In this document: positions 3,290 to 61,327 of the stretch, piece after piece | Layout of the letters: every line of letters starts with the position of its first letter | How positions within the stretch are numbered: position 1 is the first letter of the stretch | DNA from: Escherichia coli | Lineage (GTDB): Bacteria; Pseudomonadota; Gammaproteobacteria; Enterobacterales; Enterobacteriaceae | Assembly: GCF_048403405.1 (NCBI RefSeq) | Contig: NZ_CP183136.1 | Direction: 5' to 3' (one strand) | Length of the DNA stretch: 64,000 nucleotides | Position numbers and translations under genes: made by a program | The notes under the pieces: model-generated | Database searches by the model: none | Seen by the model: only the letters and a program-made list of their open reading frames with translations | Told to the model about the DNA's origin: nothing

Positions 3290-3660
3290 ACAAAAAGGCT
3301 CAACAGGTTGGTGGTTCTCACCACCAAAAGCACCACACCCTACGCAAAAACAAGTTTTTGCTGATTTTTCTTTAATATCATAGAGTAGTATATGAAAAAT
3401 TAGTATTGTCTTAACTCTCTTTATGATATTTAAAAAAGCGGTCGTCGACGCAGCTACAGCAACGCGCCGACACCGCTTTGTAGGGGTGGTACTGACTATT
3501 TTTATAAAAAACATTATTTTATATTAGGGGTGCTGCTAGCGGCGCGGTGTGTTTTTTTATAGGATACCGTCTAGGGGCGCTGCTAGCGGTGCGTCCCTGT
3601 TTGCACTATGAATTCTAGTGTTTCGAAATTAACTTTGTTTTATGTTTAAAAAAGGTAATA
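3290..3660 (-). other. oriT: oriT, R100-type; nic on minus strand at about 3334/3335
   Basis: Minus strand reads tttttgcgtagggtgtggtgcttttggtggtgagaaccaccaacctgttgagcc, matching the F/R100 nic region from recall; direct repeats taggggtgctgctagcggcgcg and ctaggggcgctgctagcggtgcg (likely TraM sites) upstream of traM. Confidence 0.8.
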
Positions 3661-22660: not shown

Positions 22661-25348
22661 ATGAAGTTTATGTGATTGCCGGTGGTGAATGGTTGCGGAA
22701 TAACCTGAACGCCATTGCCGCCTTTATGGGAACCAGGACGTGGGATTCCATTGAAAAAATTGCTCTCACCCTGTCTGTTGTTGCGGTGGCCTTTATGTGG
22801 GTACAGCGGCACAACGTGATGGATTTGCTGGGCTGGGCGGCGGTGTTTGTGCTTATCAGCCTGCTGGTTAATATCCGTACGTCGGTGCAGATTATTGATA
22901 ACAGTGACCTGGTCAAAGTCCATCGGGTGGATAATGTGCCGGTCGGACTGGCGATGCCACTTTCACTGACGACCCGTATCGGGCATGCAATGGTGGCCAG
23001 TTACGAGATGATCTACACGCAACCGGACAGTTTCACCTACAGCAAAACGGGGATGCTGTTTGGCGCAGAACCTGGTATGCAAAAAGCACCGACTTTTTGT
23101 CCCGCAATCCGGAAATCGCCAATCTTTTTCAGGATTATGTGCAGAACTGTGTGATGGGGGATATTTACCTGAACCACAAATACACGCTGGAGGAGCTGAT
23201 GGCCTCCGCTGATCCCTACACGCTGATTTTTTCCCGCCCCAGTCCGCTGCGGGGCGTTTATGACAGCAATAATAATTTCGTGACCTGTAAGGACGCGTCG
23301 GTTTCGCTGAAAGACAAGCTGAATCTGGACACACAGACGTGGCGGCAAAACCTGGCATTATTATGTGCAGCAGATATTTGGCGGTCAGCCCGGATCCGGA
23401 CCTGTTATTCAGTGCAACTGGTTGAGTGACAGTTACCGTTATTTCTACGGCTCCAGCCAGTCTGCCAGTCAGATCATGCGCCAGAACGTCACCATGAATG
23501 CGCTGAAGGAGGGTATCACCAGTTATGCAGCCCGTAACGGTGACTACCGCCAGCCTGGTGAATCTGGCCACCACGTCATCGATGGAGAAGCAACGTCTGG
23601 CACATGTCTCCATTGGTCATGTGGCTGATGCGAAACACTGCCGATGGCGCAGACCATTCTGGTGGGCATTACCATCGGTATTTTCCCGCTCCTGGTACTG
23701 GCGGCTGTCTTCAACAAACTGACGCTGTCTGTTCTGAGAGGCTATGTGTTTGCCCTGATGTGGTTGCAGTCATGGCCAATGTTGTATGCCATTCTGAACA
23801 GCGCCATGACATTTTATGCGAAGCAGAATGGTGCACCGGTGGTGCTCTCGGAAATTTCACAGATACAGCTGAAATACTCCGATCTGGCTTCCACTGCCGG
23901 GTATCTTTCCATGATGATACCCGCCATTATCCTGGATGATGGTCAGAGGCCTTGGCGCCGGTTTTTCCAGCGTGTACAGCCATTTCGCTTCCTCTGCTAT
24001 CAGCCCGACTGCCAGTGCGGCAGGCAGTGTGGTTGACGGTAATTACTCCTACGGCAACATGCAGACGGAAAACGTGAACGGCTTCAGCTGGAGCACCAAC
24101 AGCACCACGTCGTTTGGTCAGATGATGTACCAGACCGGCAGTGGCGCAACTGCCACACAGACCCGTGACGGTAATATGGTGATGGATGCAAGCGGAGCGA
24201 TGTCCCGTTTACCGGTTGGTATCAATGCAACGCGTCAGATTGCAGCGGCACAACAGGAAATGGCCCGGGAGGCGTCGAACAGAGCAGAAAGCGCCCTGCA
24301 TGGTTTCAGCAGCAGTATTGCCAGTGCCTGGAACACGCTCAGTCAGTTTGGTTCTAACCGGGGGAGCAGTGATTCTGTCACCGGTGGCGCTGACAGCACC
24401 ATGAGTGCACAGGACTCCATGATGGCCAGCCGTATGCGCAGTGCAGTGGAAAGCTATGCGAAGGCGCATAATATCAGTAATGAGCAGGCGACTCAGGAAC
24501 TGGCATCAACAGGTTCTAGGTTCTCGTCTGGCGGAATGTATGCAGATGCTCATGCTGAATGGGGGATTAAACCTGAAATTCTTGGTGTTGGTGGTGGGGT
24601 TGGTGTCAGAGGCGGGTTTAAGGGAAGTCTTGGATGCGAACGGATGATGACTCACATTCTGCAAGTAGTGGCAGCAGAGCTACCCATGATGCTCGCCATG
24701 ATATTGACGCTAAAGCCAGTACAGGACTTTAAAGAAGCCAGCGATTACTTTACCAGTCGCAAGGTCAGTGAGTCCGGCAGCCATACTGACAATAATGCTG
24801 ACTCCCGGGTGGACCAGTTGTCTGCAGCCCTGAACTCAGCGAAACAGAGTTACGACCAATACACGACGAATATGACCCGCAGCCATGAATATGCGGAAAT
24901 GGCCTCCCGTACTGAAAGCATGAGCGGGCAGATGAGTGAAGACCTGTCGCAACAGTTTGCACAGTATGTGATGAAACGCGCACCGCAGGATGCAGAAGCT
25001 ATTCTGACAAATACCAGTTCGCCGGAGATTGCAGAACGTCGTCGGGCGATGGCATGGTCTTTTGTGCAGGAACAGGTACAGCCTGGTGTTGATAATGCCT
25101 GGCGGGAATCCCGTGGCGATATTGGTAAAGGAATGGAGAGCGTACCTTCGGGTGGTGGCAGTCAGGATATTATTGCTGACCATCAGGGACATCAGGCCAT
25201 TATTGAGCAAAGAACGCAGAACAGTAATATCCGTAATGATGTAAAACATCAGGTTGATAATATGGTCACAGAATATCGTGGCAATATCGGAGATACTCAG
25301 AACAGTATCCGTGGCGAGGAAAATATTGTAAGACGGGCAGTATTCTGA
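22657..25348 (+). pseudogene. traG: TraG, mating-pair stabilisation / entry exclusion, multiply frameshifted
   Basis: Starts at GTG (VNEVYVIAGGEWLRNNLNAIAAF); successive segments in ORFs 22495..23154, 23097..23429, 23365..23628, 23644..24036 and 23936..25348 in different frames. Confidence 0.7.
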
Positions 25349-26036: not shown

Positions 26037-26768
26037 ATGAAAACAAAAAAATTGATGATGGTTGCACTGGTCAGTTCCACTCTGGCCCTTTCAGGGTGTG
26101 GTGCGATGAGCACAGCAATCAAGAAGCGTAACCTTGAGGTGAAGACTCAGATGAGTGAGACCATCTGGCTTAAACCCGCCAGCGAACGCACGGTATTTCT
26201 GCAGATCAAAAACACGTCTGATAAAGACATGAGTGGGCTGCAGGGCAAAATTGCTGATGCTGTGAAAGCAAAAGGATATCAGGTGGTGACTTCTCCGGAT
26301 GCAGCCTACTACTGGATTCAGGCGAATGTGCTGAAGGCCGATAAGATGGATCTGCGGGAGTCTCAGGGATGGCTGAACCGTGGTTATGAAGGCGCAGCTG
26401 TTGGTGCAGCGTTAGGTGCCGGTATTACCGGCTATAACTCAAATTCTGCCGGTGCCACACTCGGTGTAGGCCTTGCTGCTGGTCTGGTGGGTATGGCTGC
26501 AGATGCGATGGTGGAAGATGTGAACTATACCATGATCACGGATGTGCAGATTGCAGAGCGTACTAAGGCAACGGTGACAACGGATAATGTTGCCGCCCTG
26601 CGTCAGGGCACATCAGGTGCGAAAATTCAGACCAGTACTGAAACAGGTAACCAGCATAAATACCAGACCCGTGTGGTCTCAAATGCGAACAAGGTTAACC
26701 TGAAATTTGAAGAGGCGAAGCCTGTTCTCGAAGACCAGCTGGCCAAATCAATCGCAAATATTCTCTGA
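26037..26768 (+). CDS. traT: TraT, surface exclusion / serum-resistance lipoprotein
   Basis: 243 aa, lipobox LALSGC, matches TraT from recall. Confidence 0.9.
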
Positions 26769-27032
26769 TTATCTTCCGGAGGCTGGTCTGACCGGCCTCC
26801 TGACTGACGCCTCGCTTTGCTCGTTGTCCAACCCCGGAAAGAAATAAAATAAATTTTATTTCTCCCCGGCGTTTCCGAAATAAATATGAAAACACTGAGC
26901 GGTTGTGCAAATTCTTTGTGCGACCGTGAAGTGTTGCCGGCGAAGCCCGGAATTCTGAACGTGATTATTGAATCTTATTGCGATACGATGTGAATAATCA
27001 GTCCGACTGACTTTTTTCTTCGGAATATCATC

Positions 27033-29367
27033 ATGAGTTTTAACGCAAAGGATATGACCCAGGGCGGTCAGATTGCGTCCATGCGTATCCGCATGTTCAG
27101 CCAGATCGCCAATATCATGCTTTACTGCCTGTTTATTTTTTTCTGGATACTCGTTGGTCTGGTTTTATGGGTAAAAATAAGCTGGCAGACGTTTGTGAAC
27201 GGCTGTATTTACTGGTGGTGTACCACGCTGGAAGGCATGCGGGATTTAATCAAGTCCCAGCCGGTATATGAGATCCAGTATTACGGCAAAACCTTCCGGA
27301 TGAACGCTGCTCAGGTACTGCATGATAAATATATGATTTGGTGCGGAGAGCAGCTATGGTCCGCATTCGTTCTGGCCACAGTTGTGGCACTGGTTATTTG
27401 CCTGATTACCTTCTTTGTTGTCTCCTGGATTCTGGGGCGTCAGGGTAAACAACAGAGCGAAAATGAAGTCACAGGTGGTCGTCAGCTGACAGACAATCCG
27501 AAAGACGTTGCCCGGATGCTGAAAAAAGACGGCAAGGACTCCGATATCCGGATTGGCGACCTGCCGATTATCCGGGATTCCGAAATCCAGAACTTCTGTC
27601 TGCACGGCACGGTCGGGGCCGGTAAGTCGGAGGTTATCCGTCGTCTGGCCAACTACGCCCGTCAGCGCGGTGATATGGTGGTGATTTATGACCGTTCAGG
27701 GGAATTTGTTAAAAGTTACTATGATCCCTCCATCGATAAAATCCTGAATCCGCTGGATGCCCGCTGTGCCGCATGGGATTTGTGGAAGGAGTGCCTGACA
27801 CAGCCGGATTTTGATAATACCGCAAATACTCTGATCCCGATGGGTACAAAAGAGGACCCGTTCTGGCAGGGTTCAGGACGTACCATTTTTGCGGAAGCGG
27901 CGTACCTGATGCGTAATGACCCCAACCGCAGCTACAGCAAACTGGTGGACACACTGCTTTCCATCAAAATCGAAAAACTGCGTACCTTCCTGCGTAATTC
28001 ACCGGCGGCCAACCTGGTGGAAGAGAAAATCGAGAAAACGGCGATTTCCATCCGTGCTGTGCTGACCAACTACGTGAAAGCCATCCGTTACCTGCAGGGG
28101 ATTGAGCATAACGGTGAGCCCTTCACCATCCGTGACTGGATGCGTGGTGTCCGGGAAGATCAGAAAAACGGCTGGCTGTTTATCTCATCGAACGCCGACA
28201 CCCATGCCTCCCTGAAGCCGGTGATCTCCATGTGGCTGTCCATTGCCATTCGTGGTCTGCTGGCAATGGGAGAAAACCGTAAACGTCGTGTGTGGTTTTT
28301 CTGTGACGAGTTACCCACGTTACACAAACTGCCGGATCTGGTGGAGATCCTGCCGGAAGCCCGTAAGTTCGGTGGCTGTTATGTGTTTGGTATCCAGTCC
28401 TATGCCCAGCTGGAAGATATCTACGGTGAGAAAGCGGCGGCCACGCTGTTTGACGTCATGAACACCCGTGCTTTTTTCCGTTCTCCCGAGCCATAAGATT
28501 GCAGAGTTCGCTGCCGGTGAGATTGGTGAGAAAGAGCACCTGAAAGCCAGCGAGCAGTATTCCTACGGTGCTGATCCGGTACGTGACGGGGTATCGACCG
28601 GTAAGGATATGGAGCGTCAGACGCTGGTCAGTTATTCCGACATTCAGTCTCTGCCGGATCTGACCTGCTATGTCACTCTGCCCGGACCGTATCCGGCAGT
28701 AAAACTCTCTCTGAAATATCAGGCACGACCGAAGGTCGCTCCGGAGTTTATTCCGCGTGACATCAACCCGGAAATGGAGAACCGTCTGAGTGCCGTACTT
28801 GCCGCAAGGGAAGCAGAAGGTCGTCAGATGGCCAGCCTCTTCGAACCGGAGGTTGCCTCCGGAGAAGATGTGACTCAGGCTGAACAGCCACAACAGCCAC
28901 AACAGCCACAACAGCCACAACAGCCACAACAGTCACAACAGCCACAACAGCCACAACAGCCACAACAGCCACAACAGCCACAACAGCCACAACAGCCACA
29001 ACAGCCACAACAGCCACAACAGCCACAACAGCCACAACAGCCACAACAGCCACAACAGCCACAACAGCCACAACAGCCACAACAGCCAGTGTCTCCTGCC
29101 ATCAACGATAAGAAGTCAGATGCAGGTGTGAGTGTTCCGGCAGGGGGGATCGAGCAGGAGCTGAAAATGAAACCGGAAGAAGAGATGGAACAGCAACTGC
29201 CACCCGGGATCAGTGAATCCGGTGAAGTGGTGGATATGGCCGCTTATGAGGCATGGCAACAGGAAAATCATCCGGACACCCAGCAGCAGATGCAGCGTCG
29301 TGAAGAGGTGAACATTAATGTGCACCGGGAGCGCGGGGAGGATGTTGAGCCGGGAGATGATTTCTGA
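27033..29367 (+). pseudogene. traD: TraD coupling protein, one frameshift near 28480
   Basis: ORF 27033..28496 (Walker A GTVGAGKS) and ORF 28468..29367 (continuing ...[23 protein letters not shown]) are adjacent TraD segments in different frames; contains the QQP repeat. Confidence 0.75.
28885..29086 (+). repeat. 9-bp tandem repeat (cagccacaa), about 22 units, encoding the TraD C-terminal QQP tract
   Basis: Directly visible periodicity, with one variant unit cagtcacaa. Confidence 0.9.
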
Positions 29368-32300
29368 TGTTGAGTTTCAGCGTTGGTTAAATCGGCAGGC
29401 AGTGCCGGAAACTATTACACCGACAAGGATAATTACTATGTGCTGGGCAGCATGGGAGAACGCTGGGCTGGTCAGGGGGGCTGAACAGCTTGGGACTGCA
29501 GGGCAGCGTCGATAAGGATGTTTTTACCCGTCTTCTGGAGGGCAGGCTGCCGGACGGAGCGGATTTAAGCCGCATGCAGGATGGCAGTAATAAGCATCGT
29601 CCCGGCTACGACCTGACCTTCTCCGCCCCCAAAAGTGTCTCCATGATGGCCATGCTCGGGGGCGATAAACGCCTGATTGATGCACATAACCAGGCCGTGG
29701 ATTTTGCTGTCCGTCAGGTGGAGGCGCTGGCTTCCACACGGGTGATGACGGACGGACAGTCAGAAACGGTGCTGACCGGTAATCTGGTGATGGCACTGTT
29801 TAACCATGACACCAGTCGCGATCAGGACCCACAGTTACACACGCATGTAGTGGTGGCTAATGTCACGCAGCATAACGGCGAGTGGAAGACACTGAGCAGT
29901 GACAAAGTGGGGAAAACCGGATTTATCCGAGAACGTGCTACGCGAACCGGATTGCGTTCGGGAAGATCTATCAGAGTGAGTTACTGTCAGCGCAGGTTGA
30001 GGCGCTGGGTTATGAAACCGAAGTGGTCGGTAAGCACGGTATGTGGGAGATGCCGGGCGTACCGGTGGAGGCCTTTTCCAGTCGTTCACAGGCTATCAGG
30101 GAGGCCGTCGGTGAAGACGCCTCGCTGAAATCCCGGGATGTGGCGGCACTGGATACGCGAAAATCCAAACAGCACGTCGATCCGGAAATCAGAATGGCTG
30201 AATGGATGCAGACGCTGAAGGAAACCGGGTTCGACATCCGGGCATATCGTGACGCGGCGGATCAGCGTGCGGAGACCCGCACGCAGGCGCCCGGGGCTGT
30301 TTCACAGGAGGGGCCGGATGTGCAGCAGGCGGTGACACAGGCCATTGCCGGATTAAGTGAACGAAAAGTGCAGTTTACGTACACGGACGTGCTGGCCAGA
30401 ACGGTCGGTATACTGCCGCCGGAAAATGGTGTGATTGAACGGGCACGCGCCGGTATCGATGAGGCCATCAGTCGTGAGCAGCTTATCCCCCTCGACCGTG
30501 AGAAGGGGCTGTTCACATCAGGAATTCATGTGCTCGATGAGCTGTCCGTCCGGGCACTCAGTCGTGACATCATGAAACAGAACCGGGTGACCGTACATCC
30601 GGAGAAAAGTGTCCCCCGGACGGCTGGTTACAGCGATGCGGTCAGTGTTCTGGCACAGGACCGTCCGTCGCTGGCCATTGTGTCCGGGCAGGGCGGTGCA
30701 GCCGGGCAGCGTGAGCGGGTGGCTGAACTGGTCATGATGGCCCGGGAGCAGGGGCGGGAGGTGCAGATTATCGCTGCTGACCGTCGCTCGCAGATGAACC
30801 TGAAGCAGGATGAACGGCTGTCCGGTGAGCTGATAACCGGACGTCGTCAGCTGCAGGAGGGCATGGTCTTCACGCCGGGCAGTACTGTTATCGTCGACCA
30901 GGGCGAAAAACTCTCCCTGAAAGAGACGTTAACCCTGCTGGACGGTGCCGCACGTCATAACGTACAGGTCCTGATAACCGACAGCGGGCAGCGAACCGGT
31001 ACAGGCAGTGCGCTGATGGCCATGAAGGATGCCGGGGTGAACACGTATCGCTGGCAGGGCGGAGAACAGCGACCGGCAACCATCATCAGTGAACCGGACC
31101 GGAATGTCCGCTATGACCGGCTGGCCGGAGATTTTGCGGCCAGCGTGAAAGCCGGAGAAGAGAGCGTGGCACAGGTCAGCGGGGTACGGGAACAGGCCAT
31201 ACTGACACAGGCCATTCGCAGTGAGCTGAAAACACAGGGCGTGCTCGGACACCCGGAGGTGACCATGACCGCCCTGTCACCGGTCTGGCTGGACAGCCGG
31301 AGCCGTTATCTGCGGGATATGTACCGACCGGGGATGGTGATGGAGCAGTGGAACCCGGAGACACGCAGTCATGACCGCTATGTTATCGACCGGGTGACGG
31401 CGCAGAGTCACAGCCTGACCCTGCGGGATGCGCAGGGCGAAACGCAGGTGGTGCGTATTTCCTCCCTGGACAGCAGCTGGTCGCTGTTCCGGCCGGAAAA
31501 AATGCCGGTGGCAGACGGCGAGCGACTGAGGGTGACAGGGAAAATTCCCGGACTCCGCGTCTCCGGCGGTGACCGCCTGCAGGTGGCATCCGTCAGTGAA
31601 GATGCGATGACGGTTGTTGTGCCGGGGCGGGCTGAACCGGCCACCCTGCCTGTGGCTGATTCACCGTTCACGGCACTGAAGCTGGAGAACGGCTGGGTGG
31701 AAACGCCCGGGCATTCCGTCAGTGACAGTGCGACGGTGTTTGCCTCCGTCACACAGATGGCAATGGACAACGCCACCCTGAACGGTCTGGCCCGCAGCGG
31801 TCGTGATGTCCGGCTGTATTCCTCACTGGATGAAACCCGTACTGCGGAAAAACTTGCCCGCCATCCCTCCTTTACGGTGGTTTCTGAGCAGATAAAGGCG
31901 CGGGCCGGTGAGACATCGCTGGAAACCGCTATCAGTCTGCAGAAAACCGGGCTGCACACGCCGGCACAGCAGGCCATTCATCTGGCCCTTCCTGTGCTGG
32001 AAAGTAAAAACCTGGCCTTCAGCATGGTGGACCTGCTGACAGAGGCGAAGTCGTTTGCTGCAGAAGGAACCGGTTTTACTGAACTGGGAGGGGAAATCAA
32101 TGCGCAGATAAAACGCGGTGACTTACTGTATGTGGATGTGGCAAAAGGCTATGGCACAGGCCTGCTGGTTTCTCGTGCGTCGTATGAGGCAGAAAAAAGT
32201 ATTCTTCGCCATATTCTCGAAGGTAAGGAGGCGGTCACGCCGCTGATGGAGAGAGTACCCGGCGAACTCATGGAGACGTTAACGTCGGGACAGCGTGCCG

Positions 32301-34645
32301 CCACCCGTATGATACTGGAAACGTCCGACCGTTTCACGGTGGTACAGGGTTATGCCGGTGTGGGTAAGACCACACAGTTCCGGGCGGTGATGTCAGCCGT
32401 GAACATGCTGCCGGCGAGTGAGCGTCCCCGAGTTGTGGGGCTGGGGCCCACGCACCGTGCGGTCGGTGAGATGCGCAGCGCCGGCGTGGATGCACAGACG
32501 CTGGCGTCCTTTCTGCATGACACGCAGCTGCAGCAGCGCAGCGGAGAAACGCCGGATTTCAGCAACACGCTGTTCCTGCTCGATGAGAGCTCAATGGTGG
32601 GCAATACCGACATGGCACGGGCATACGCCCTGATTGCGGCCGGTGGCGGTCGTGCCGTGGCCAGTGGTGACACGGACCAGCTGCAGGCCATCGCGCCCGG
32701 TCAGCCTTTCCGTCTCCAGCAGACGCGCAGTGCTGCCGATGTGGTCATCATGAAGGAGATTGTGCGTCAGACGCCGGAACTGCGGGAGGCGGTATACAGC
32801 CTGATTAACCGGGATGTGGAAAAGGCACTGTCCGGGCTTGAGAGTGTGAAACCGTCTCAGGTGCCACGTCTGGAGGGCGCATGGGCACCGGAGCACTCCG
32901 TGACGGAGTTCAGTCACAGCCAGGAAGCGAAACTGGCAGAAGCGCAGCAGAAGGCGATGCTGAAAGGTGAGACTTTTCCGGATGTCCCCATGACACTGTA
33001 TGAAGCCATTGTCCGCGACTATACCGGCAGGACACCGGAAGCACGGGAGCAGACGCTGATTGTCACGCACCTGAATGAGGACCGGCGCGTACTGAACAGC
33101 ATGATTCATGATGCACGGGAAAAGGCCGGTGAGCTGGGGCAGGAGCAGGTCATGGTGCCTGTCCTGAACACAGCGAATATACGTGACGGGGAGCTGCGTC
33201 GTCTCTCCACCTGGGAGAATAACCCGGATGCCCTTGCCCTGGTGGATAGTGTGTATCACCGGATTGCCGGTATCAGCAAGGATGACGGGCTGATAACCCT
33301 GGAGGATGCGGAAGGTAACACGCGGCTGATTTCGCCCCGGGAGGCGGTGGCTGAAGGTGTCACACTGTACACCCCGGACAAAATCCGGGTGGGGACCGGC
33401 GACCGGATGCGCTTCACGAAGAGTGACCGGGAGCGCGGTTATGTGGCCAACAGCGTCTGGACGGTGACAGCGGTTTCCGGTGACAGTGTCACGCTGTCAG
33501 ACGGACAGCAGACCCGGGTGATTCGCCCCGGCCAGGAGCGGGCAGAGCAACATATTGACCTGGCTTATGCCATCACCGCCCACGGTGCGCAGGGGGCGAG
33601 TGAAACCTTTGCCATCGCGCTTGAAGGCACGGAAGGTAACCGGAAACTGATGGCCGGCTTTGAGTCAGCCTACGTGGCCCTGTCGCGTATGAAGCAGCAT
33701 GTGCAGGTGTACACCGATAACCGTCAGGGCTGGACGGATGCCATTAACAATGCCGTACAGAAAGGAACTGCCCACGATGTGCTGGAGCCGAAACCGGACC
33801 GGGAGGTCATGAATGCGCAGCGGCTGTTCAGTACGGCACGGGAACTGCGGGACGTGGCGGCAGGCCGTGCCGTTCTCCGTCAGGCAGGGCTGGCCGGGGG
33901 AGACAGCCCTGCACGGTTTATTGCACCGGGACGTAAATATCCGCAGCCGTATGTGGCACTGCCGGCGTTTGACCGTAACGGCAAGTCAGCTGGTATCTGG
34001 CTGAACCCACTGACCACGGATGACGGAAACGGGCTGCGGGGATTCAGTGGTGAAGGACGGGTGAAAGGCAGCGGGGATGCGCAGTTCGTGGCCCTGCAGG
34101 GCAGCCGTAACGGAGAGAGCCTGCTGGCTGATAATATGCAGGATGGCGTCCGGATTGCCCGTGATAATCCTGACAGCGGTGTGGTGGTGAGAATTGCCGG
34201 TGAAGGTCGTCCGTGGAATCCCGGTGCCATCACCGGTGGCCGCGTGTGGGGGGATATCCCGGATAACAGCGTCCAGCCGGGGGCCGGAAATGGCGAACCG
34301 GTCACGGCAGAGGTACTGGCACAGCGGCAGGCTGAAGAGGCCATCCGCCGTGAAACGGAACGCCGCGCAGATGAAATTGTCAGGAAAATGGCAGAGAACA
34401 AACCTGACTTGCCGGACGGCAAAACAGAGCTGGCTGTCAGGGATATTGCCGGGCAGGAACGTGACCGGACTGCCACTTCTGAACGGGAAACCGCACTGCC
34501 GGAGAGTGTGCTGCGTGAATCACAACGGGAGCGGGAAGCGGTCCGGGAGGTTGCCCGGGAAAATCTGCTGCAGGAGCGTCTGCAGCAGATGGAGCGGGAT
34601 ATGGTTCGTGACCTGCAGAAAGAGAAAACCCTGGGCGGAGACTGA
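29367..34645 (+). pseudogene. traI: TraI relaxase-helicase; 5' relaxase-domain region frameshifted, remainder intact
   Basis: ORF 30023..34645 (1540 aa) is the intact C-terminal part; ORF 29490..30128 carries relaxase-domain sequence (…HDTSRDQDPQLHTHVVVANV…) in another frame; the first ~40 codons are also broken. Confidence 0.8.
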
Positions 34646-34664
34646 TACAGGAAGACAAACACTG

Positions 34665-35411
34665 ATGACAACGGATAACACGAACACGACACGTAACGAT
34701 TCACTGGCTGCACGGACCGATACCTGGTTGCAGTCGTTTCTGGTCTGGTCACCCGGACAGCGGGATATCATCAAAACGGTGGCGCTGGTGCTGATGGTAC
34801 TGGACCACATCAATCTGATATTCCAGCTGAAGCAGGAATGGATGTTTCTGGCCGGGCGAGGAGCCTTTCCGCTGTTTGCCCTGGTGTGGGGGCTGAATCT
34901 GTCCCGTCATGCGCATATCCGGCAACCGGCCATTAACCGGCTGTGGGGATGGGGAATTATTGCCCAGTTCGCATATTATCTGGCCGGCTTTCCCTGGCAT
35001 GAGGGGAATATCCTGTTTGCCTTTGCAGTGGCGGCACAGGTGCTGACGTGGTGTGAAACGCGCAGTGGGTGGCGTACAGCAGCGGCCATTCTTCTGATGG
35101 CCCTGTGGGGGCCTTTGTCCGGCACCAGTTACGGCATTGCCGGGCTGCTGATGCTGGCGGTCAGTTACCGACTGTACCGGGCGGAAGACAGAGCGGAACG
35201 TCTGGCGCTGCTTGCATGCCTGCTGGCCGTTATTCCGGCACTTAACCTTGCCTCCAGTGATGCAGCGGCGGTGGCCGGTCTTGTAATGACGGTGCTGACC
35301 GTTGGTCTGGTGTCGTGTGCAGGAAAATCATTACCCCGTTTCTGGCCCGGGGATTTTTTCCCGGTATTCTACGCCTGTCATCTGGCTGTGCTGGGCGTTC
35401 TGGCGTTGTGA
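34665..35411 (+). CDS. traX: TraX, pilin N-acetylase
   Basis: 248-aa polytopic membrane protein after traI. Confidence 0.85.
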   Translation: MTTDNTNTTRNDSLAARTDTWLQSFLVWSPGQRDIIKTVALVLMVLDHINLIFQLKQEWMFLAGRGAFPLFALVWGLNLSRHAHIRQPAINRLWGWGIIAQFAYYLAGFPWHEGNILFAFAVAAQVLTWCETRSGWRTAAAILLMALWGPLSGTSYGIAGLLMLAVSYRLYRAEDRAERLALLACLLAVIPALNLASSDAAAVAGLVMTVLTVGLVSCAGKSLPRFWPGDFFPVFYACHLAVLGVLAL

Positions 35412-35469
35412 CTGGTATGATACTGACGCTGATTCTGATTATTAATAAACAACATAACACAGGATATTT

Positions 35470-36330
35470 ATGAAAATTACGGATCACAAACTCTCTGAAG
35501 GTATTGCCCTGACATTTCGTGTTCCTGAAGGAAATATAAAACATCCTTTGATTATCTTATGCCATGGGTTTTGCGGTATCAGGAATGTTCTGCTCCCTTG
35601 CTTTGCGAATGCCTTCACAGAAGCAGGATTCGCAACGATTACTTTTGATTATCGAGGATTCGGTGAGAGTGATGGAGAACGAGGGCGTCTGGTTCCTGCA
35701 ATGCAGACCGAAGATATTATTTCAGTTATCAATTGGGCAGAAAAGCAGGAATGTATTGATAATCAGCGTATTGGGTTATGGGGAACATCGCTGGGAGGGG
35801 GGCATGTCTTCAGTGCAGCTGCGCAGGACCAACGCGTAAAATGTATTGTCAGCCAGCTGGCTTTTGCTGACGGTGATGTTCTGGTTACCGGAGAGATGAA
35901 TGAATCGGAGAGAGCGTCTTTTCTGTCCACGCTGAATAAAATGGCAGAGAAGAAGAAAAACACCGGGAAAGAGATGTTTGTGGGGGTTACCCGGGTACTG
36001 AGTGATAATGAATCAAAGGTATTCTTCGAGAAGGTAAAAGGTCAGTATCCTGAAATGGATATAAAAATACCTTTCCTTACGGTTATGGAGACGTTGCAAT
36101 ATAAACCGGCAGAGAGCGCAGCCAAAGTACAGTGCCCAGTTTTGATTGTTATTGCCGGCCAGGATAGTGTTAATCCACCAGAACAGGGAAAAGCCTTATA
36201 TGATGCTGTTGCTTCTGGTACTAAGGAATTATACGAGGAAGCTGACGCATGCCATTATGATATTTATGAAGGCGCGTTTTTTGAACGTGTGGCGGCAGTA
36301 CAGACGCAATGGTTTAAAAAACATCTTTAA
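35470..36330 (+). CDS. Alpha/beta-fold hydrolase
   Basis: HGFCG oxyanion-hole-like motif and GTSLGG nucleophile elbow. Confidence 0.7.
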   Translation: MKITDHKLSEGIALTFRVPEGNIKHPLIILCHGFCGIRNVLLPCFANAFTEAGFATITFDYRGFGESDGERGRLVPAMQTEDIISVINWAEKQECIDNQRIGLWGTSLGGGHVFSAAAQDQRVKCIVSQLAFADGDVLVTGEMNESERASFLSTLNKMAEKKKNTGKEMFVGVTRVLSDNESKVFFEKVKGQYPEMDIKIPFLTVMETLQYKPAESAAKVQCPVLIVIAGQDSVNPPEQGKALYDAVASGTKELYEEADACHYDIYEGAFFERVAAVQTQWFKKHL

Positions 36331-36432
36331 TTGTCGGTATTAATATGTCAGAGGTCGTTGAGGTCAGCTTAATATCATAGTGAGTAGTTTCAACGACCTG
36401 GAGGACATATTTTCACAAAGGTCAGGGCAATC

Positions 36433-36993
36433 ATGACAGAGCAGAAACGACCGGTACTGACACTGAAACGGAAAACGGAAGGGGAAACACCGACCCGGAG
36501 CCGGAAAACCATCATCAATGTCACCACGCCACCAAAATGGAAGGTGAAAAAGCAGAAACTGGCGGAGAAGGCTGCCCGGGAAGCAGAGCTGACAGCAAAA
36601 AAAGCGCAGGCCAGACAGGCGCTGTCCATTTATCTGAACCTGCCCTCGCTGGATGAGGCCGTGAACACCCTGAAACCCTGGTGGCCGGGATTATTTGACG
36701 GTGACACACCCCGACTTCTGGCCTGCGGTATCCGGGACGTGTTACTGGAAGACGTGGCGCAGCGGAATATCCCGCTCTCGCATAAAAAACTGCGCAGGGC
36801 GCTGAAGGCCATCACCCGTTCAGAAAGCTATCTGTGTGCCATGAAAGCCGGTGCCTGCCGGTATGACACGGAAGGGTATGTGACGGAGCATATTTCTCAG
36901 GAGGAAGAAGTGTATGCGGCAGAGCGTCTGGATAAAATCCGCCGCCAGAACCGGATAAAGGCAGAACTTCAGGCCGTGCTTGATGAACAATAA
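36433..36993 (+). CDS. finO: FinO fertility-inhibition RNA chaperone, apparently intact
   Basis: 186 aa, basic N-terminus; matches FinO from recall. Confidence 0.85.
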
Positions 36994-36994
36994 A

Positions 36995-37025
36995 AAAGCC
37001 TCCTTCACACTAAAGGAGGCGGAAA
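36995..37025 (+). terminator. Rho-independent terminator after finO
   Basis: Hairpin gcctcctt...aaggaggc. Confidence 0.6.
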
Positions 37026-37577
37026 AATAAGGCTTCTCTGAAACCTTCTTCCATACCCGGCAGAAGAAGGTTATAAAAATTTATAACACATTCACCGGCC
37101 TGGATTAAAGGGGGAAGGAAAATGAACGGAACAGGGCGTGATTCGCAAAACTCCGGGGTATGGCGCTACCGGCAGGTCGGACGCCGGGCTGTCCGGCTGG
37201 AAGTCAGGGGGACTGGCCGGGAGCCGCTGAGGCATGGCTACGGGCTGCGCAGTCTGCTCCCCGGACAGACTGGCAGCAGTTTGCCCGAAAAAGGGCTGAA
37301 CACTGCCACCGGCGCTGCCGGGGAAGGGTGTAACGAAAAAGCAGCCTTCATTACTCCAGGGATTCAGAAGGCTGAATAATGCATGAGATTTGCTTTTTTT
37401 AATATCCGGTCGGAAAGTATGACCGGACAGTTCTGAGTAGCACAGAGTTTTTTCCATATTAAGTCGTGATTTTATATTTTGTGATTAATTTCACAAAATA
37501 AGGTGTTATTCAGTGTGTGCTGCGATATTCAGGATTACCTGAAATACAGGTGCCATTTATCTGATATGGAGAATAAC

Positions 37578-38039
37578 ATGAGGAAATATATTCCACTGGT
37601 ATTATTTATCTTTTCATGGCCGGTATTGTGTGCAGATATTCATGGACGGGTTGTTCGTGTACTGGACGGTGATACCATCGAGGTCATGGACTCACGGAAG
37701 GCAGTGCGGATCAGGCTGATAAATATTGATGCACCGGAAAAGAAACAGGATTATGGCCGGTGGTCAACGGACATGATGAAATCACTGGTTGCAGGAAAAA
37801 CGGTTACCGTCACATATTTTCAGCGAGATCGTTATGGTCGTATTCTCGGGCAGGTTTATGCACCAGACGGAATGAATGTTAATCAGTTTATGGTCCGGGC
37901 CGGGGCTGCCTGGGTATATGAGCAGTACAACACAGATCCCGTGCTGCCTGTCCTTCAGAACGAAGCCAGACAACAAAAACGTGGGCTCTGGTCAGATGCT
38001 GATCCGGTTCCCCCCTGGATATGGAGACACCGTAAATAA
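37578..38039 (+). CDS. Secreted thermonuclease (micrococcal-nuclease family)
   Basis: Signal peptide MRKYIPLVLFIFSWPVLCA and SNase-like motifs (VLDGDTIEV, RLINIDAPE). Confidence 0.75.
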   Translation: MRKYIPLVLFIFSWPVLCADIHGRVVRVLDGDTIEVMDSRKAVRIRLINIDAPEKKQDYGRWSTDMMKSLVAGKTVTVTYFQRDRYGRILGQVYAPDGMNVNQFMVRAGAAWVYEQYNTDPVLPVLQNEARQQKRGLWSDADPVPPWIWRHRK

Positions 38040-38084
38040 AGCGATGGCAATCTTATCATTCATCTGTTCTCAGCGGGAATAAAA

Positions 38085-38294
38085 ATGGCGAAAACAAAAC
38101 AGGAATGGCTGTATCAGTTACGGCGATGTTCATCAGTCAATACGCTGGAAAAAATTATTCATAAAAACAGAGACAGTTTATTAAACAGTGAACGTGAATC
38201 ATTTAATTCAGCAGCAGACCACCGGTTAGCGGAATTAATCACCGGAAAGTTATATGACAGGATACCAAAAGAGATATGGAAATATGTAAGGTAA
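38085..38294 (+). CDS. Hypothetical protein (69 aa)
   Basis: ORF only. Confidence 0.3.
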   Translation: MAKTKQEWLYQLRRCSSVNTLEKIIHKNRDSLLNSERESFNSAADHRLAELITGKLYDRIPKEIWKYVR

Positions 38295-38331
38295 TAATTC
38301 AGAATAATTAATTACCAGGAGCAGATAAACA

Positions 38332-38922
38332 ATGAAGCTGATTATTTTTATTCTCATTGTTCTGATTATTGCAGCGTTACTTATCCGGATTATCCTCAAA
38401 AGTGTAAATCAGCATTCTCCTTTGCTGATGCAGTTGCATGCGGCAGGTATACGGACCGGTGATGCAGAGCGAATACTGTCCGGCGGTGAATACTGGCAAC
38501 GTCAGAAGACGCTGCTGACAGAAAGGGAAGTCAGTTTTATGAAAGGACTGTTCAGAATTGTGGATATGAAGCGGTGGTATCTGTGTCCGCAGGTACGGGT
38601 CGCGGATATCGTCCAGCTGAACGGGAATATCCGGCCACGATCACGCCAGTGGTGGCAGTTATTCAGGATGGTGTCTCAGTGGCATGTTGATGTGGTTATC
38701 GTTGAGCGGCGTTCGTTCAGTATTGTTGCAGCAGTAGAGCTGGATGATGCCAGCCATTTACGACCGGAACGCAGACGCCGGGATATTCTTCTGGAAGAGG
38801 TTCTGAGGCAGGCTGGTATTCCGTTGCTCAGAAGCCACGATGCCAGAAAACTGCTGCAGATGACCGGAGAATGGCTGAATACAACAGGAACTGATCAGCA
38901 ATCACCGGAACATCGTAGCTGA
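38332..38922 (+). CDS. DUF2726-like protein with N-terminal transmembrane helix
   Basis: 196-aa ORF with hydrophobic N-terminus; family assignment from recall. Confidence 0.55.
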   Translation: MKLIIFILIVLIIAALLIRIILKSVNQHSPLLMQLHAAGIRTGDAERILSGGEYWQRQKTLLTEREVSFMKGLFRIVDMKRWYLCPQVRVADIVQLNGNIRPRSRQWWQLFRMVSQWHVDVVIVERRSFSIVAAVELDDASHLRPERRRRDILLEEVLRQAGIPLLRSHDARKLLQMTGEWLNTTGTDQQSPEHRS

Positions 38923-39161
38923 CGCCTTCGCGTTGCTCAGTTGTCCAACCCCGGAAACGGGAAAAAGCAAGTTTTCCCCGCTCCCGGCGTTTCCATAACT
39001 GAAAACCATACTATTTCACAGTTTAAATCACATTAAACGACAGTAATCCCCGTTGATTTGTGCGCCAACACAGATCTTCGTCACAATTCTCAAGTCGCTG
39101 ATTTCAAAAAACTGTAGTATCCTCTGCGAAACGATCCCTGTTTGAGTATTGAGGAGGCGAG

Positions 39162-39419
39162 ATGTCGCAGACAGAAAATGCAGTGACTTCCTCATCTGGC
39201 GCAAAACGAGCATACAGAAAGGGTAAACCTTTGAGTGAAGCAGAACGACAGAGAGCAGCTTCTGCGCGCAAACGATCTGTATGTAAAGAGATCAAGGTTT
39301 TCGTCAGACCAGAACTGAAAAACTACCTTACCAGTCTGTGTGCAGAGGAAGGGGTAACTCAGGCAGAGTTGATAGAAAGGCTTATCGAGAAAGAGGCCTG
39401 TCACAGGAACATGATGTGA
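39162..39419 (+). CDS. copB: CopB (RepA2) replication repressor
   Basis: 85-aa ORF MSQTENAVTSSSGAKRAYRKGKPLSEAERQRA..., IncFII CopB from recall. Confidence 0.85.
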   Translation: MSQTENAVTSSSGAKRAYRKGKPLSEAERQRAASARKRSVCKEIKVFVRPELKNYLTSLCAEEGVTQAELIERLIEKEACHRNMM

Positions 39420-39469: not shown

Positions 39470-39570
39470 TTTAAGGAATTTTGTGGCTGGCCACGCCGTA
39501 AGGTGGCAGGGAACTGGTTCTGATGTGGATTTACAGGAGCCAGAAAAGTGAAAACCCCGATAATCTTCAG
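39470..39570 (-). ncRNA. copA: CopA antisense RNA (approximate)
   Basis: Position between copB and tap/repA1 in a RepFII replicon; bounds not resolved. Confidence 0.4.
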
Positions 39571-39654
39571 CAAGTTTGGCGACTAAGAAGAAGATTAACG
39601 GGGCTAACAAGAAACCGCATAGAAGCTGTTGCTCTATGCGGGGAGTATAGTTAT

Positions 39655-39729
39655 ATGCCCGGAAAAGTTCAAGACTTCTTTCTGTGCTCACTCCTTCTGT
39701 GCAACATAAGTGCAGGATGGTGTGACTGA
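39655..39729 (+). CDS. tap: Tap (RepA6) leader peptide
   Basis: 24-codon [27 protein letters not shown] whose stop overlaps the repA1 start. Confidence 0.7.
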
Positions 39730-40579
39730 TCTTCACCAAACGTATTACCGCCAGGTAAAGAACCCGAATCCGGTGTTTACACCCCGTAAAGGTGCCGGAA
39801 CGCTGAAGTTCTGCGAAAAACTGATGGAAAAGGCGGTGGGCTTCACCTCCCGTTTTGACTTCGCCATTCATGTGGCGCATGCCCGTTCGCGTGGTCTGCG
39901 TCGACGCATGCCACCGGTGCTGCGTCGACGGGCAATTGATGCGCTGCTGCAGGGGCTGTGTTTCCACTATGACCCGCTGGCCAACCGCGTCCAGTGCTCC
40001 ATCACCACACTGGCCATTGAGTGCGGACTGGCGACAGAGTCCGGTGCAGGAAAACTCTCCATCACCCGTGCCACCCGGGCCCTGACGTTCCTGTCAGAGC
40101 TGGGACTGATTACCTACCAGACGGAATATGACCCGCTTATCGGGTGCTACATTCCGACCGACATCACGTTCACACCGGCACTGTTTGCCGCTCTCGATGT
40201 GTCTGAGGTGGCGGTGGCTTCCGCACGCCGCAGTCGTGTGGAATGGGAAAACAGACAGCGCAAGAAGCAGGGACTGGATGCACTGGGCATGGATGAACTG
40301 ATAGCGAAAGCCTGGCGTTTTGTTCGTGAGCGTTTTCGCAGTTATCAGACAGAGCTTAAGTCCCGGGGAATAAAGCGTGCCCGTGCGCGTCGTGATGCGG
40401 ACAGGGAACGTCAGGATATTGTCACCCTGGTGAAACGGCAGCTGACGCGCGAAATCGCGGAAGGGCGCTTCACTGCCAATCGTGAGGCGGTAAAACGCGA
40501 AGTTGAGCGTCGTGTGAAGGAGCGCATGATTCTGTCACGTAACCGTAATTACAGCCGGCTGGCCACAGCTTCCCCCTGA
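39722..40579 (+). CDS. repA1: RepA1 replication initiator (IncFII)
   Basis: 285 codons from [29 protein letters not shown]..., matches R100/R1 RepA1 from recall. Confidence 0.9.
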
Positions 40580-40850: not shown

Positions 40851-41298
40851 TTAAACACCTGTTTATATCTCCTTTAAACTACTTAATTACATTCATTTAA
40901 AAAGAAAACCTATTCACTGCCTGTCCTGTGGACAGACAGATATGCACCTCCCACCGCAAGCGGCGGGCCCCGACCGGAGCCATTTTAGTTACAACACTCA
41001 AATACAAGCACCGGGAAAACCCCAGTCCAGCGCAGAACTGAAACCACAAAGCCCCTCCTCATAACTGAAAAGCGGCCCCGCCCCGGCCCGAAGGGCCGGA
41101 ACAGAGTCGCTTTTAATTATGAATGTTGTAACTACATCATCATCGCTGTCAGTCTTCTGGCTGGAAGTTCTCAGTACACGCTCGTAAGCGGCCCTGACGG
41201 CCCGCTAACGCGGAGATACGCCCCGACTTCGGGTAAACCCTCGTCGGGACCACTCCGACCGCGCACAGAAGCTCTCTCATAGCTGAAAACGGGTATAG

Positions 41299-41430
41299 TC
41301 TGGCAGGGCAAGGGATGGGTAAGGTGAAATCTATCAATCAGTACCGGCTTACGCCGGGCTTCGGCGGTTTTACTCCGGTATCACATGTAACCACAGCGTG
41401 CCGCCTTCCATGCCGCTGGCGCGGCATAAG
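41299..41430 (+). repeat. Conserved motif, copy 2 of 3 (gggtaaggtgaaatctatcaatcagtaccggcttacgccgg ... gccttccatgccgctggcgcggcataa)
   Basis: Shares blocks with 49934..50050 and 2620..2710. Confidence 0.5.
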
Positions 41431-41645
41431 CATATGTTGGTGGCTGTGTCTGAAAGGTTATATACTCTGCATAAAACCTGACAACACGCAGATTGCCAGG
41501 CAAATGAGCATTATGCATCCGGTTATCGCCTGCCTGTGAAACAATATCACCGGGGCGAATATCGATACTCTGACTCGTTATACCCATGCGTGCGGCATCA
41601 AAAAACCTGCAATTGCCCTTTATTGAATGAAAGGGGGAGTCAATT

Positions 41646-49900: not shown

Positions 49901-49933
49901 TCAGGATGTCACACTACCCCTTTAAGCCCCCAC

Positions 49934-50050
49934 TGGTCTGGCAGGGCCGGGGGTGGGTAAGGTGAAACCTGTCAATCAGTACCGGCTTACGCCGGTATCA
50001 TATGCAACAACTGAGTGCCGCCTTCCATATCATATCATTTGCCCGTTTCC
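49934..50050 (+). repeat. Conserved motif, copy 3 of 3
   Basis: tctggcagggccgggggtgggtaaggtgaaacctgtcaatcagtaccggcttacgccgg ... tgccgccttccata, similar to 41299..41430. Confidence 0.5.
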
Positions 50051-52384: not shown

Positions 52385-52560
52385 AAACTCCTTATGGTGT
52401 TTTTTTGGTGTTTGTTTGGGTGTGTTTTGGGCTTTAAATGGGTTTATTTGTCAAGTTTACCCCATTTTAACTATCAATCAATGATTATTTGTCTTGTTTT
52501 GGTGTTTTGTTGGGCTTGGTATGGGTTGTTTTTGGGTTTTGTTTGGCGGATAACAAAAGA
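52385..52560 (-). other. parC: parC centromere
   Basis: Tandem short iterons (ggtgtttgtttgg variants) directly upstream of parM. Confidence 0.65.
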
Positions 52561-61270: not shown

Positions 61271-61327
61271 CTGCTACTGCTACTGCTACTGCTACTGCTA
61301 CTGCTACTGCTACTGCTACTGCTACTG
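61271..61327 (+). repeat. Hexanucleotide microsatellite (CTGCTA), about 9.5 units
   Basis: Directly visible perfect period-6 repeat. Confidence 0.95.

Follow-up and report, generated by a model that had tools for sequence, protein, structure and literature searches.

Two hairpin elements of an F-like IncFII plasmid are probable phiX174-type primosome assembly sites on the transferred strand

The window analyzed here, a 64,000-nucleotide stretch of the Escherichia coli contig NZ_CP183136.1, contains two related hairpin elements that are probably phiX174-type primosome assembly sites (PAS; also n'-pas or PriA-dependent ssi), active as single-stranded DNA on the minus strand, which is nicked at oriT and transferred in conjugation. 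Judged by resemblance to known sites, PriA-dependent priming of complementary-strand synthesis in the recipient is their most likely function. The two elements, here called PAS-A and PAS-B, are related in sequence and structure to the priming sites of phiX174 and ColE1, their stems are under strand-specific selection and both are located on the transferred strand (T-strand). Elements of this kind are already known and belong to ordinary F-plasmid biology; they are neither terminators nor attachment sites.

A sequence-only reading had pointed out two similar hairpin motifs, one after traT and one after a DUF2726 gene, with shared flanks around a variable hairpin, and both are present as described. 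Pairwise alignment of the copies gives 80% column identity, with conserved flanks on the left (TGACGCC(T)TCGC.TTGCTC(A)GTTGTCCAACCCCGGAAA) and right (CCCGGCGTTTCC) and a differing hairpin between them. The window holds two matches to the 18-mer GTTGTCCAACCCCGGAAA, and no more when three mismatches are permitted, against an expectation of 0.10, and none of 100 shuffles yielded two or more matches; exact matches to the 12-mer CCCGGCGTTTCC in the window are confined to the same two sites. Comparison with copies embedded in unrelated DNA refined the element limits; for PAS-B, the edges come from Klebsiella plasmids whose copies are 100% identical and have unrelated surroundings. With filters switched off, two covariance models detected only these two sites in the window; matches at 3066-3112 and 2431-2515 are plain hairpins without the conserved flanks and do not represent further copies. 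At neither site does the RefSeq or PLSDB annotation of matching records show a feature. The stop codon of the DUF2726 open reading frame (TGA, 38920-38922) falls within the terminal CTGACGCC of PAS-B. The GC-rich hairpin between the traT stop codon and PAS-A is absent from PAS-B and may be either a traT 3' hairpin or an extra structure flanking the PAS. A hairpin of different sequence is predicted at the equivalent place in a Klebsiella copy (L018).

Table 1 Features of the window bearing on the two elements (strand given where assigned).
Feature	Position	Strand	Description
PAS-A	26804..26876	-	Complete element, probable phiX174-type primosome assembly site; traT-traD intergenic; minus strand reads GGAAACGCCGGGGAGAAATAAAATTTATTTTATTTCTTTCCGGGGTTGGACAACGAGCAAAGCGAGGCGTCAG
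PAS-A main hairpin	26830..26873	-	16-bp continuous stem (26834-26869), 4-nt loop, outer 3-bp AAC/GTT helix
PAS-B	38919..38994	-	Complete element, probable phiX174-type primosome assembly site; DUF2726 ORF / IncFII repA2 promoter region; minus strand reads GGAAACGCCGGGAGCGGGGAAAACTTGCTTTTTCCCGTTTCCGGGGTTGGACAACTGAGCAACGCGAAGGCGTCAG
PAS-B main hairpin	38947..38991	-	16-bp stem (38951-38987), 5-nt loop, outer AAC/GTT helix
PAS-B small 3' hairpin	~38923-38934	-	ACGC-GAAG-GCGT
oriT nick region	3295..3345	-	TTTGCGTAGGGTGT/GGTGCTTTTGGTGGTGAGAACCACCAACCTGTTGAGCC; F-type nick sequence
traT	26037..26768	+	99.2% amino-acid identity to annotated F traT; upstream of PAS-A
GC-rich 10-bp hairpin	26778..26800		GGAGGCTGGTC TGA CCGGCCTCC
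traD	27033..29367	+	Frameshifted in this window; downstream of PAS-A
DUF2726-family ORF	38332..38922	+	196 aa; named after the annotation of matching records; upstream of PAS-B
repA2 (copB)	39162..39419	+	IncFII replicon; downstream of PAS-B
CopA RNA	39546-39637	-	IncFII replicon
repA1	39710-40579		IncFII replicon

Each element is predicted to form a stable hairpin with single-stranded, fork-like flanks on one strand of DNA. Hairpin pairing is continuous on the minus strand only and is kept in spite of differing sequences in the two copies. For PAS-A, the minus strand folds with -28.7 kcal/mol as RNA (z -5.05) and -15.0 kcal/mol as DNA (z -3.92), the corresponding plus-strand folds being weaker (z -2.88 and -2.68). 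PAS-B gives -35.6 kcal/mol (z -4.45) and -19.0 kcal/mol (z -3.30) for minus-strand RNA and DNA, respectively, and its plus-strand RNA fold reaches a z-score of only -1.07. When read on the minus strand, the stems of 22 distinct copies contain 42 G·T wobbles versus 3 A·C mismatches, an excess indicating that selection acts on this strand and not on the mRNA-sense strand. In a structural alignment fitted to the covariance model, 96.2% of cells are paired and double compensatory changes are found in 12 of 19 pairs; 0 of 500 shuffles reach the observed value and slid controls are 49-65% paired. This alignment was rebuilt through the covariance model, since MAFFT, applied to all variants (A4), had placed the stems of PAS-A, locus L010 and phiX174 out of register. 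Three divergent members (L020:7436-7522, L015:11649-11726 and L011:858-938) have wholly different stems and retain TTGGACAA...CGTCAGC.

On the minus strand, the succession of AACGCC, a long hairpin, GGGGTTG(G)ACAA and a small hairpin reproduces the layout of the phiX174 n'-pas, which is an experimentally defined PAS. In an alignment with the phiX174 F-G intergenic region (2300-2376), AACGCCG, the hairpin, GGGGTTG.ACCAAG and GCGAAGC follow in the same order with the same predicted fold. Minus-strand DNA folds, with z-scores of -3.3 to -5.0, show the dot-bracket architecture of phiX174. Common to plasmid and phage sites are, in this order, AACGCC, a hairpin of 12-16 bp whose top is A/T-rich, GGGGTTG.AC.AA and a small hairpin closed by a GAA or GAAG loop. 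They differ in that the phiX174 stem is unrelated in sequence to those of the plasmid copies and contains a 2x2 internal loop, whereas the plasmid stem is fully paired over 16 bp; a conserved 3' end (GGCGTCAG) is an addition seen in the plasmid copies. The host molecules differ as well, a conjugative plasmid strand here and a phage genome in phiX174.

Two covariance models were used for comparison, namely R1, built only from plasmid elements of the PAS-B type with PAS-A left out, and the broader R2. Although built without it, R1 scores PAS-A at 63.1 bits (E 5.7e-20); the covariance-model score of PAS-B is 99.6 bits. Scores for phiX174 and ColE1 are modest (19-31 bits) and roughly calibrated: in the whole phiX174 genome the top R1 match is 2300-2375 on the viral strand (E 1.9e-5; next match 0.05), R2 scores the phiX174 site at 28.7 bits (E 9e-7), and the only R2 site in ColE1, at 1529-1611 and adjoining rop, reaches 31.4 bits (E 1.2e-8). 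We take this ColE1 match to be the experimentally mapped ColE1 priming site. It is found on the same strand as the ColE1 nick-region motif TATACTGGCTTAAC, which as written presumably represents the nicked strand. The ColE1/pMB1 site by rop (ssiB/rriB-type; pBR322 factor Y effector site) has a 3' domain, TGACAAGCCCGTCAGGGCGCGTCAGC, almost the same as that of divergent F-like copies such as locus L011 (GGACAAGCCCGATGGGCGCGTCAGC). The start of the site coincides with the stop codon of rop, the gene upstream, a relation that PAS-B has to its own upstream gene. In contrast, the 5' AACGCC and GGGGTTGG are not conserved in ColE1. ColE1 carries a PAS that is thought to prime the transferred strand (PMC4595007). 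PAS are fork-like hairpins bound by PriA, PriB and DnaT, and what is required of them is activation of the PriA ATPase and assembly of a PriA/PriB/DnaT/DnaB/DnaC/DnaG primosome on SSB-coated DNA (PMC5778457).

The F-type nick sequence of oriT reads on the minus strand, which makes the minus strand the transferred strand and places both PAS on it; by analogy with F, nicking would occur between 3335 and 3334. Both copies, antisense to tra, thus belong to a strand that passes through a single-stranded state in vivo. At every one of about 30 loci, the site runs antisense to tra and rep genes, an orientation rule that rests on few independent contexts because many of these loci are the same homologous position.

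We hypothesize that the T-strand enters the recipient 5' to 3' in the order leading region, replicon, PAS-B, traI and traD, PAS-A and remaining tra genes. SSB would cover the single-stranded DNA, and each site would still fold as a 16-bp hairpin with its conserved flanks: 5' of it AACGCC, and 3' of it GGGGTTGGACAAC, a small hairpin with a GNA loop and GGCGTCAG. PriA should then bind by recognizing the fork-like structure and recruit PriB and DnaT, whereupon DnaB would be loaded from DnaB-DnaC and joined by DnaG. The assembled primosome would travel 5' to 3' on the T-strand toward DNA that is still entering, with primers being extended by Pol III, and the late-entering half of the plasmid would become duplex, the early-entering part presumably being covered by Frpo-type single-strand promoters of the leading region. 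It should be noted that priA recipients inherit F' plasmids with about normal efficiency; if this holds, the sites can be no more than redundant to Frpo/RNA-polymerase priming.

The motif had also been suggested to be a reused terminator, an attachment-like module or a duplication scar. Only the reuse is borne out: it is a discrete, sharply bounded element of about 75 bp that thousands of plasmids carry, in a number of gene contexts. A search of other plasmids, proposed as a check, recovered it from over 5000 plasmid records; it occupies at least two fixed positions, where the neighbor genes vary, and PAS-A is 100% identical to the F plasmid (NC_002483.1, 89578-89668). Among 5426 complete E. 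coli genomes, 4754 places were located on plasmids versus 29 on chromosomes, and sites were found in more than half of the genomes. Upstream genes encode DUF2726, DsbA, a colicin-immunity protein or a hypothetical protein beside a PIN-domain gene, and downstream genes include hok, a PLD nuclease gene and repA2. Stop codons of two unrelated upstream genes (DUF2726 and DsbA) fall within the element end, and one locus (L014) shows a tandem gene-PAS-gene-PAS arrangement. The best 5000 matches include 616 plasmids typed as non-mobilizable; retention there makes a role outside conjugation, or simple inheritance, possible. A MITE or REP-like dispersed repeat does not agree with two copies per window, near-absence from chromosomes and fixed positions. 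A Streptomyces match (L017) from a genome-wide pattern scan lacks the 3' domain and is a clear false positive.

On the coding strand, both copies closely follow a stop codon, and the hairpin can still form in plus-strand RNA, as a reused rho-independent terminator or a 3'-end stabilizing hairpin of the traT and DUF2726 transcripts would. This is nevertheless extremely unlikely. The plus-strand hairpin is followed by UUU only, the minus strand has no T-run (GGGGUUGG follows), neither site combines a GC-rich hairpin with an immediate U tract, and a terminator consensus scan lists neither of them. C·A mismatches interrupt the mRNA-sense stem, in keeping with the low plus-strand z-score of PAS-B and with the wobble excess, which places selection on the opposite strand. 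In addition, 35 nt of conserved flanking sequence would be superfluous for a terminator, and expression of traD and traI needs read-through of the tra operon across PAS-A. The G·U-containing stems do fold best as minus-strand RNA, and plasmids of this type carry several antisense RNAs (Rfam AS-traI, AS-traG, AS-pc01 and AS-pc02). Yet the likelihood that minus-strand transcription yields a structured antisense RNA or an RNA motif here is close to negligible: Rfam 15 gave no match at the gathering threshold at either site, and only chance matches far below it when E-values up to 1 were allowed on both 211-bp regions. Next to the two copies, a scan of the minus strand found neither a promoter-like site nor a terminator, and the nearest relatives of the element are single-stranded DNA signals in a single-stranded DNA phage and in ColE1.

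A PriA-type PAS could also serve vegetative replication or restart instead of conjugation, by allowing DnaB to be reloaded at stalled forks or by priming on the strand displaced from the IncFII origin. PAS-B is always located immediately upstream of the IncFII replicon and the element persists in non-mobilizable plasmids, both of which would suit such a role; overall, we regard it as unlikely. IncFII replication from oriR is unidirectional and rightward, and reasoning from this direction the minus strand would be the leading-strand template, so that a PAS on it would not serve lagging-strand priming. PAS-A, moreover, is 12 kb away from the replicon within the tra operon, and the invariant antisense-to-tra orientation agrees with the T-strand. 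A repeat downstream of oriR (41290-41435 and 49930-50035), folded as a possible G4-type site, was not significantly structured. ColE1-type plasmids do use a PAS for lagging-strand initiation (PMC3167613), but according to a review, replication of the IncFII plasmid R1, unlike that of phiX174 and pBR322, needs no DnaT (PMC4129139), which speaks against a requirement for the sites in vegetative IncFII replication. Recombination offers another reading of the same distribution, either as an attachment or attC-like site or as a passive homology patch marking module junctions for accessory-gene swaps among F-like plasmids. Sharp edges next to unrelated DNA, differing genes on both sides, the tandem array of L014 and the stop codons of two different genes within the element end would all fit. 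Integron attC sites, whose stems vary and whose ends are conserved, are likewise imperfect hairpins that act as bottom-strand single-stranded DNA 3' of cassette genes, and by direct reading plus-strand GTCCAAC fits the R'' consensus RYYYAAC. We still consider this reading very improbable. The R' core that should match it, GTTRRRY, is missing, with GTTTCC or GTTTCT at the 3' end instead, no integrase, Xer-type or other recombinase is found among the annotated neighbors, and the element occurs neither in cassette arrays nor in more than two copies per plasmid, at fixed positions and with flanks far more conserved than those of attC. On direct reading of the ends, attC and dif-like sites were rejected, and recombination would leave the match to the phiX174 and ColE1 priming sites unexplained. 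A duplication scar is contradicted by the combination of conserved flanks with a stem whose divergence is compensatory, indicating a selected structure and not a recent scar.

Homologous recombination at a conserved 75-bp patch may well occur as a side effect and is compatible with PAS identity. We tentatively raise the possibility, which we consider less likely than not, that the PAS of F-like plasmids is a portable unit of about 75 bp that marks the 3' ends of exchangeable gene modules, beyond being a fixed priming signal. If so, PriA-mediated priming of the late-entering T-strand half and recombinational joining of the mosaic finO-to-repA region would fall to one and the same sequence. phiX174, ColE1 and F-like plasmids would then share one ancestral PAS family spread by horizontal capture, and, with Frpo priming taken away, plasmid establishment should show a measurable need for PriA and DnaT.

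Nomura, Masai and colleagues reportedly recovered phiX174-type ssi from F and R100 in 1991, including homologues of the phiX174 n'-pas, and the ssi plaque assay (rifampicin-resistant complementary-strand synthesis in origin-deleted M13, expected for one orientation only) is said to have been run for both plasmids. A passage of a later article (PMC7690428) cites this work (Nomura, Masai et al., Gene 108:15 (1991)) for the ssi of F and R100. The ssi mapped at the time may correspond to the two positions described here; a full-text literature search returned no paper placing phiX174-type PAS at these positions. How and when the incoming strand of F-like plasmids becomes duplex in the recipient has been described as unclear (PMC9849209), and current discussion of this conversion focuses on the Frpo promoters of the leading region. 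PriA-type sites on the late-entering half of the transferred strand would offer a simple route for discontinuous priming during entry. Frpo-type ssi of the F leading region resemble the PAS in being T-strand hairpins, and they start primer or RNA synthesis, as is proposed for the PAS. Unlike the PAS, they are about 300-330 nt long, rebuild -35 and -10 boxes and use RNA polymerase, whereas the PAS is a 75-nt, PriA-site-like element without promoter boxes, and a promoter scan finds nothing at either site. The window also holds three Frpo-like giant hairpins, located away from both PAS.

The best-supported reading of the two hairpin elements, copy A in the traT-traD spacer and copy B between a DUF2726-family ORF and the IncFII replicon, is that both would act as primosome assembly sites (PAS) of the phiX174 type on the incoming strand transferred in conjugation (T-strand). 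The window represents the greater part of a ~68-kb IncFII F-like plasmid and contains Rfam matches to FinP, the traJ 5' UTR and CopA. Two sites with shared flanks around a differing hairpin had been proposed by the sequence-only reading, and both were found, aligning pairwise at 80% identity with a near-invariant left flank (TGACGCC.TCGC.TTGCTC.GTTGTCCAACCCCGGAAA) and right flank (CCCGGCGTTTCC). Allowing up to 3 mismatches, a search of the 64 kb gives two occurrences of the 18-mer GTTGTCCAACCCCGGAAA (0.10 expected; at least 2 matches in 0 of 100 shuffles), and no third site was found in the window with R2, the broader of two covariance models built from element copies.

Features of the window with their coordinates and strands
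Feature	Position	Strand	Description
Copy A	26804-26876	minus	35 nt 3' of traT stop, 5' of traD
Copy B	38919-38994	minus	overlaps DUF2726-family ORF stop codon; upstream of IncFII repA2
F-type nick sequence	~3345-3295	minus	TTTGCGTAGGGTGT/GGTGCTTTTGGTGGTGAGAACCACC
Frpo-like repeats	688-1148, 58019-58617, 61326-61924		leading region; ~450-600 bp each, 74-99% identical
6- and 12-bp repeat run	61248-61355	plus	TGCTAC/TGTTAC units
AS-traG	23379-23467	minus	pHK01 antisense RNA family, above Rfam gathering score
AS-traI	32224-32300	minus	as AS-traG
AS-pc02	37230-37413	minus	as AS-traG
AS-pc01	58742-58843	minus	as AS-traG
Inverted repeat	3066-3112		22 bp, near-perfect; AATCCCGTTACCGGGTTAATGCC...GGTATTAATCCGGTAACGGGAT
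traD frameshift region	28380-28560		extra G at ~28488; stop 28494-28496
traD ORFs	27033-28496, 28468-29367		split gene
traD tandem repeat	28883-29088		3' part; 9-bp unit AACAGCCAC x 22.9, 98% match
traI 5' end	29400-30050		longest ORF begins only at 30023
Short repeats	41298-41429, 49936-50028, 2675-2706, 52719-52750, 54024-54055		common to IncFII-origin-downstream region and other places
Direct repeats	52553-52852, 53858-54157		300 nt, 97% identical, spaced 1305 bp

The stems of both copies are interrupted on the plus (mRNA-sense) strand and form an uninterrupted 16-bp stem on the minus strand, because plus-strand C·A mismatches turn into G·T(U) wobbles. RNA folds of copies A and B reach z-scores of -5.05 and -4.45 for the minus strand versus -2.88 and -1.07 for the plus strand; the corresponding DNA fold values are -3.92 and -3.30 versus -2.68 and -2.29. 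Across 22 distinct copies, in an alignment fitted to the structure model and so biased towards it, 96.2% of stem cells are paired and 12 of 19 pairs carry changes on both sides; these values were reached in 0 of 500 shuffles, and slid-partner controls were 49-65% paired. The stem cells include 42 G·T versus 3 A·C, and this excess together with the pairing statistics shows selection on pairing in the minus strand. Read on that strand, the element consists of GAAACGCCGG, the hairpin, CCGGGGTTGGACAAC, a small hairpin (loop GAAG, GAG or larger) and GGCGTCAG.

This layout is shared with the F-G intergenic site of phiX174 (AACGCCGAAGCGGTAAAAATTTTAATTTTTGCCGCTGAGGGGTTGACCAAGCGAAGCGCGG), whose parts align one for one with the plasmid element and whose predicted DNA fold is identical in layout. 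As an unbiased test, covariance model R1 was built from 12 copy-B-type plasmid elements only; it recovers copy A (63 bits, E 5.7e-20), and in the entire phiX174 genome, searched on both strands with filters off, its top match is viral-strand 2300-2375 (E 1.9e-5; runner-up 0.05). With R2, the phiX174 site scores 28.7 bits (E 9e-7); ColE1 yields a single site, at 1529-1611 (31.4 bits, E 1.2e-8), which begins at the rop stop codon. This ColE1/pBR322 stretch is probably one of a mapped pair of factor Y (PriA) effector sites. Its 3' half (TGACAAGCCCGTCAGGGCGCGTCAGC) hardly differs from the one in divergent F-like copies on Kluyvera, Entomohabitans and Klebsiella michiganensis contigs, copies whose stems are wholly different.

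The F-type nick sequence is located on the minus strand, which is therefore the T-strand. Both copies lie on this strand, whose leading region enters first and tra genes last, and the element is antisense to tra and rep genes in every copy from ~30 loci and one further complete plasmid segment. The ColE1 site likewise shares one strand with the nick-region motif TATACTGGCTTAAC, and PMC4595007 reports the view that a ColE1 PAS primes the strand sent to the recipient.

The motif recurs in other plasmids, with at least 5000 matching records among 72,556 (BLAST, either copy); hosts among the matches listed include Escherichia, Klebsiella, Salmonella, Shigella, Citrobacter, Enterobacter and others. 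Matches occur in 3034 of 5426 complete E. coli genomes, at 4754 places on plasmids versus 29 on chromosomes. Klebsiella plasmids match copy B at 100% identity, limited exactly to query positions 5-79, and in a five-copy alignment the sequence beyond CTGACGCC...CCGGCGTTTC is unrelated between copies, defining a unit of ~75 bp with sharp edges. Copy-B-type elements always lie between the distal tra end and the IncFII replicon, with varying neighbors upstream (DUF2726, DsbA, a colicin-immunity gene, or a hypothetical gene adjoining a PIN-domain gene) and downstream (hok, a PLD-family nuclease, or repA2 directly). On a Buttiauxella plasmid contig (L014), PAS copies at 4524-4613 and 7045-7134 flank a DUF2726 gene in the order finO...PAS, DUF2726, PAS, repA2. 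The TGA in the terminal CTGACGCC serves as stop codon of unrelated upstream genes, namely DUF2726 at copy B and DsbA in another locus (L002:3001-3075). The tandem and these stop codons hint that the edge of the element has served to join gene modules. In two IncFIB/IncFIC-type E. coli plasmids, a copy upstream of the replicon (L026:2500-2586, L027:2501-2585) retains the hairpin and has a damaged GGGGTTGGAC core, reading GAGGGGAGGGGC in one and GGGGGGGAC in the other; both sites may be in decay. Contigs with E. coli-type F-plasmid elements are filed under Streptomyces morookaense (L008), a Lachnospiraceae MAG (L009/L010), Microbacterium sp. (L012) and Acinetobacter idrijaensis (L022/L023), most likely assemblies contaminated by enterobacterial plasmid DNA.

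The sequence-only reading had suggested a reused terminator or attachment-like module, or a duplication scar. The terminator does not hold, as there is no U tract, neither site appears in the terminator scan and selection on the stem acts on the minus strand, the wrong one for this role. For an attachment or attC-like site, one end does fit RYYYAAC, but it lacks its partner core, and the annotated neighbors include no recombinase. An RNA family was rejected, with no Rfam match at either copy, and none of the four antisense RNA matches overlaps them. Homologous exchange at the 75-bp patch could account for the varied neighbors, the L014 tandem and the DUF2726 and DsbA stops inside the element; it would then be a side effect, compatible with PAS identity.

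A role in vegetative replication would fit the retention of the element in plasmids typed non-mobilizable. It is nonetheless less likely, since the accepted direction of oriR replication makes the minus strand the leading-strand template and R1 replication is reported, in the account of PMC4129139, not to need DnaT.

The phiX174 PAS is described as a fork-like hairpin on SSB-coated DNA where DnaB is loaded by PriA, PriB, (PriC) and DnaT, after which primase acts (PMC5778457). For copies A and B we infer PriA binding, priming and any transfer effect; as PAS, they would let the half of the plasmid that enters late be primed discontinuously. The early-entering part carries three Frpo-like giant hairpins. 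These leading-region repeats look like Frpo-type single-stranded DNA promoters, a kind of single-strand initiation sequence (ssi), on the transferred strand, the third forming one giant ~330-nt minus-strand hairpin (-146.7 kcal/mol, z -13.3). The AS-pc01 match adjoins the second repeat and the 6- and 12-bp repeat run lies beside the third.

PAS of the phiX174 type and plasmid ssi signals are classical. Some ssi from a 1991 screen by Nomura et al. are said to be of the phiX174 type. As cited in PMC7690428, that screen yielded a total of eleven ssi, which came from F, R6K, R100 and ColE2 (Nomura et al., Gene 108:15 (1991)). Plasmid F has copy A in its own traT-traD spacer at 100% identity, so we rate the finding on copies A and B as already known. 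No feature is annotated at the two sites in the matching plasmid and RefSeq records, and if the screen never mapped these positions, the sites would be new and the signal type known. The gain is a correct label for the element and a testable tie to T-strand conversion to duplex.

Elsewhere in the window, traD is split by a frameshift (TCTCCCGAGCC vs TCTCCC-AGCC in the 99%-identical traD of L010), which points to a genuine pseudogene or else to an error in the assembly. At the traI 5' end, TraI N-terminal sequence switches among all three frames at least 2 times, leaving 1540 aa vs ~1756 expected. Together, these frame breaks suggest either that the transfer system has decayed or that the sequencing was prone to indels. 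The Gln/Pro-rich traD repeat gives the impression of being long for TraD. The inverted repeat ~220 bp from the oriT nick lies within a lytic transglycosylase CDS (gene X/orf169 type, minus strand), with fold z-scores of -5.3 and -5.0 by strand. The short repeats, including the GC hairpin ATGCCGCTGGCGCGGCAT and the 60-mer GTCTGGCAGGGC...CTTACGCCGG, might be G4-type primase sites, with folding overall not significant (z -0.8 to -1.8). Finally, two long direct repeats are listed in the table.
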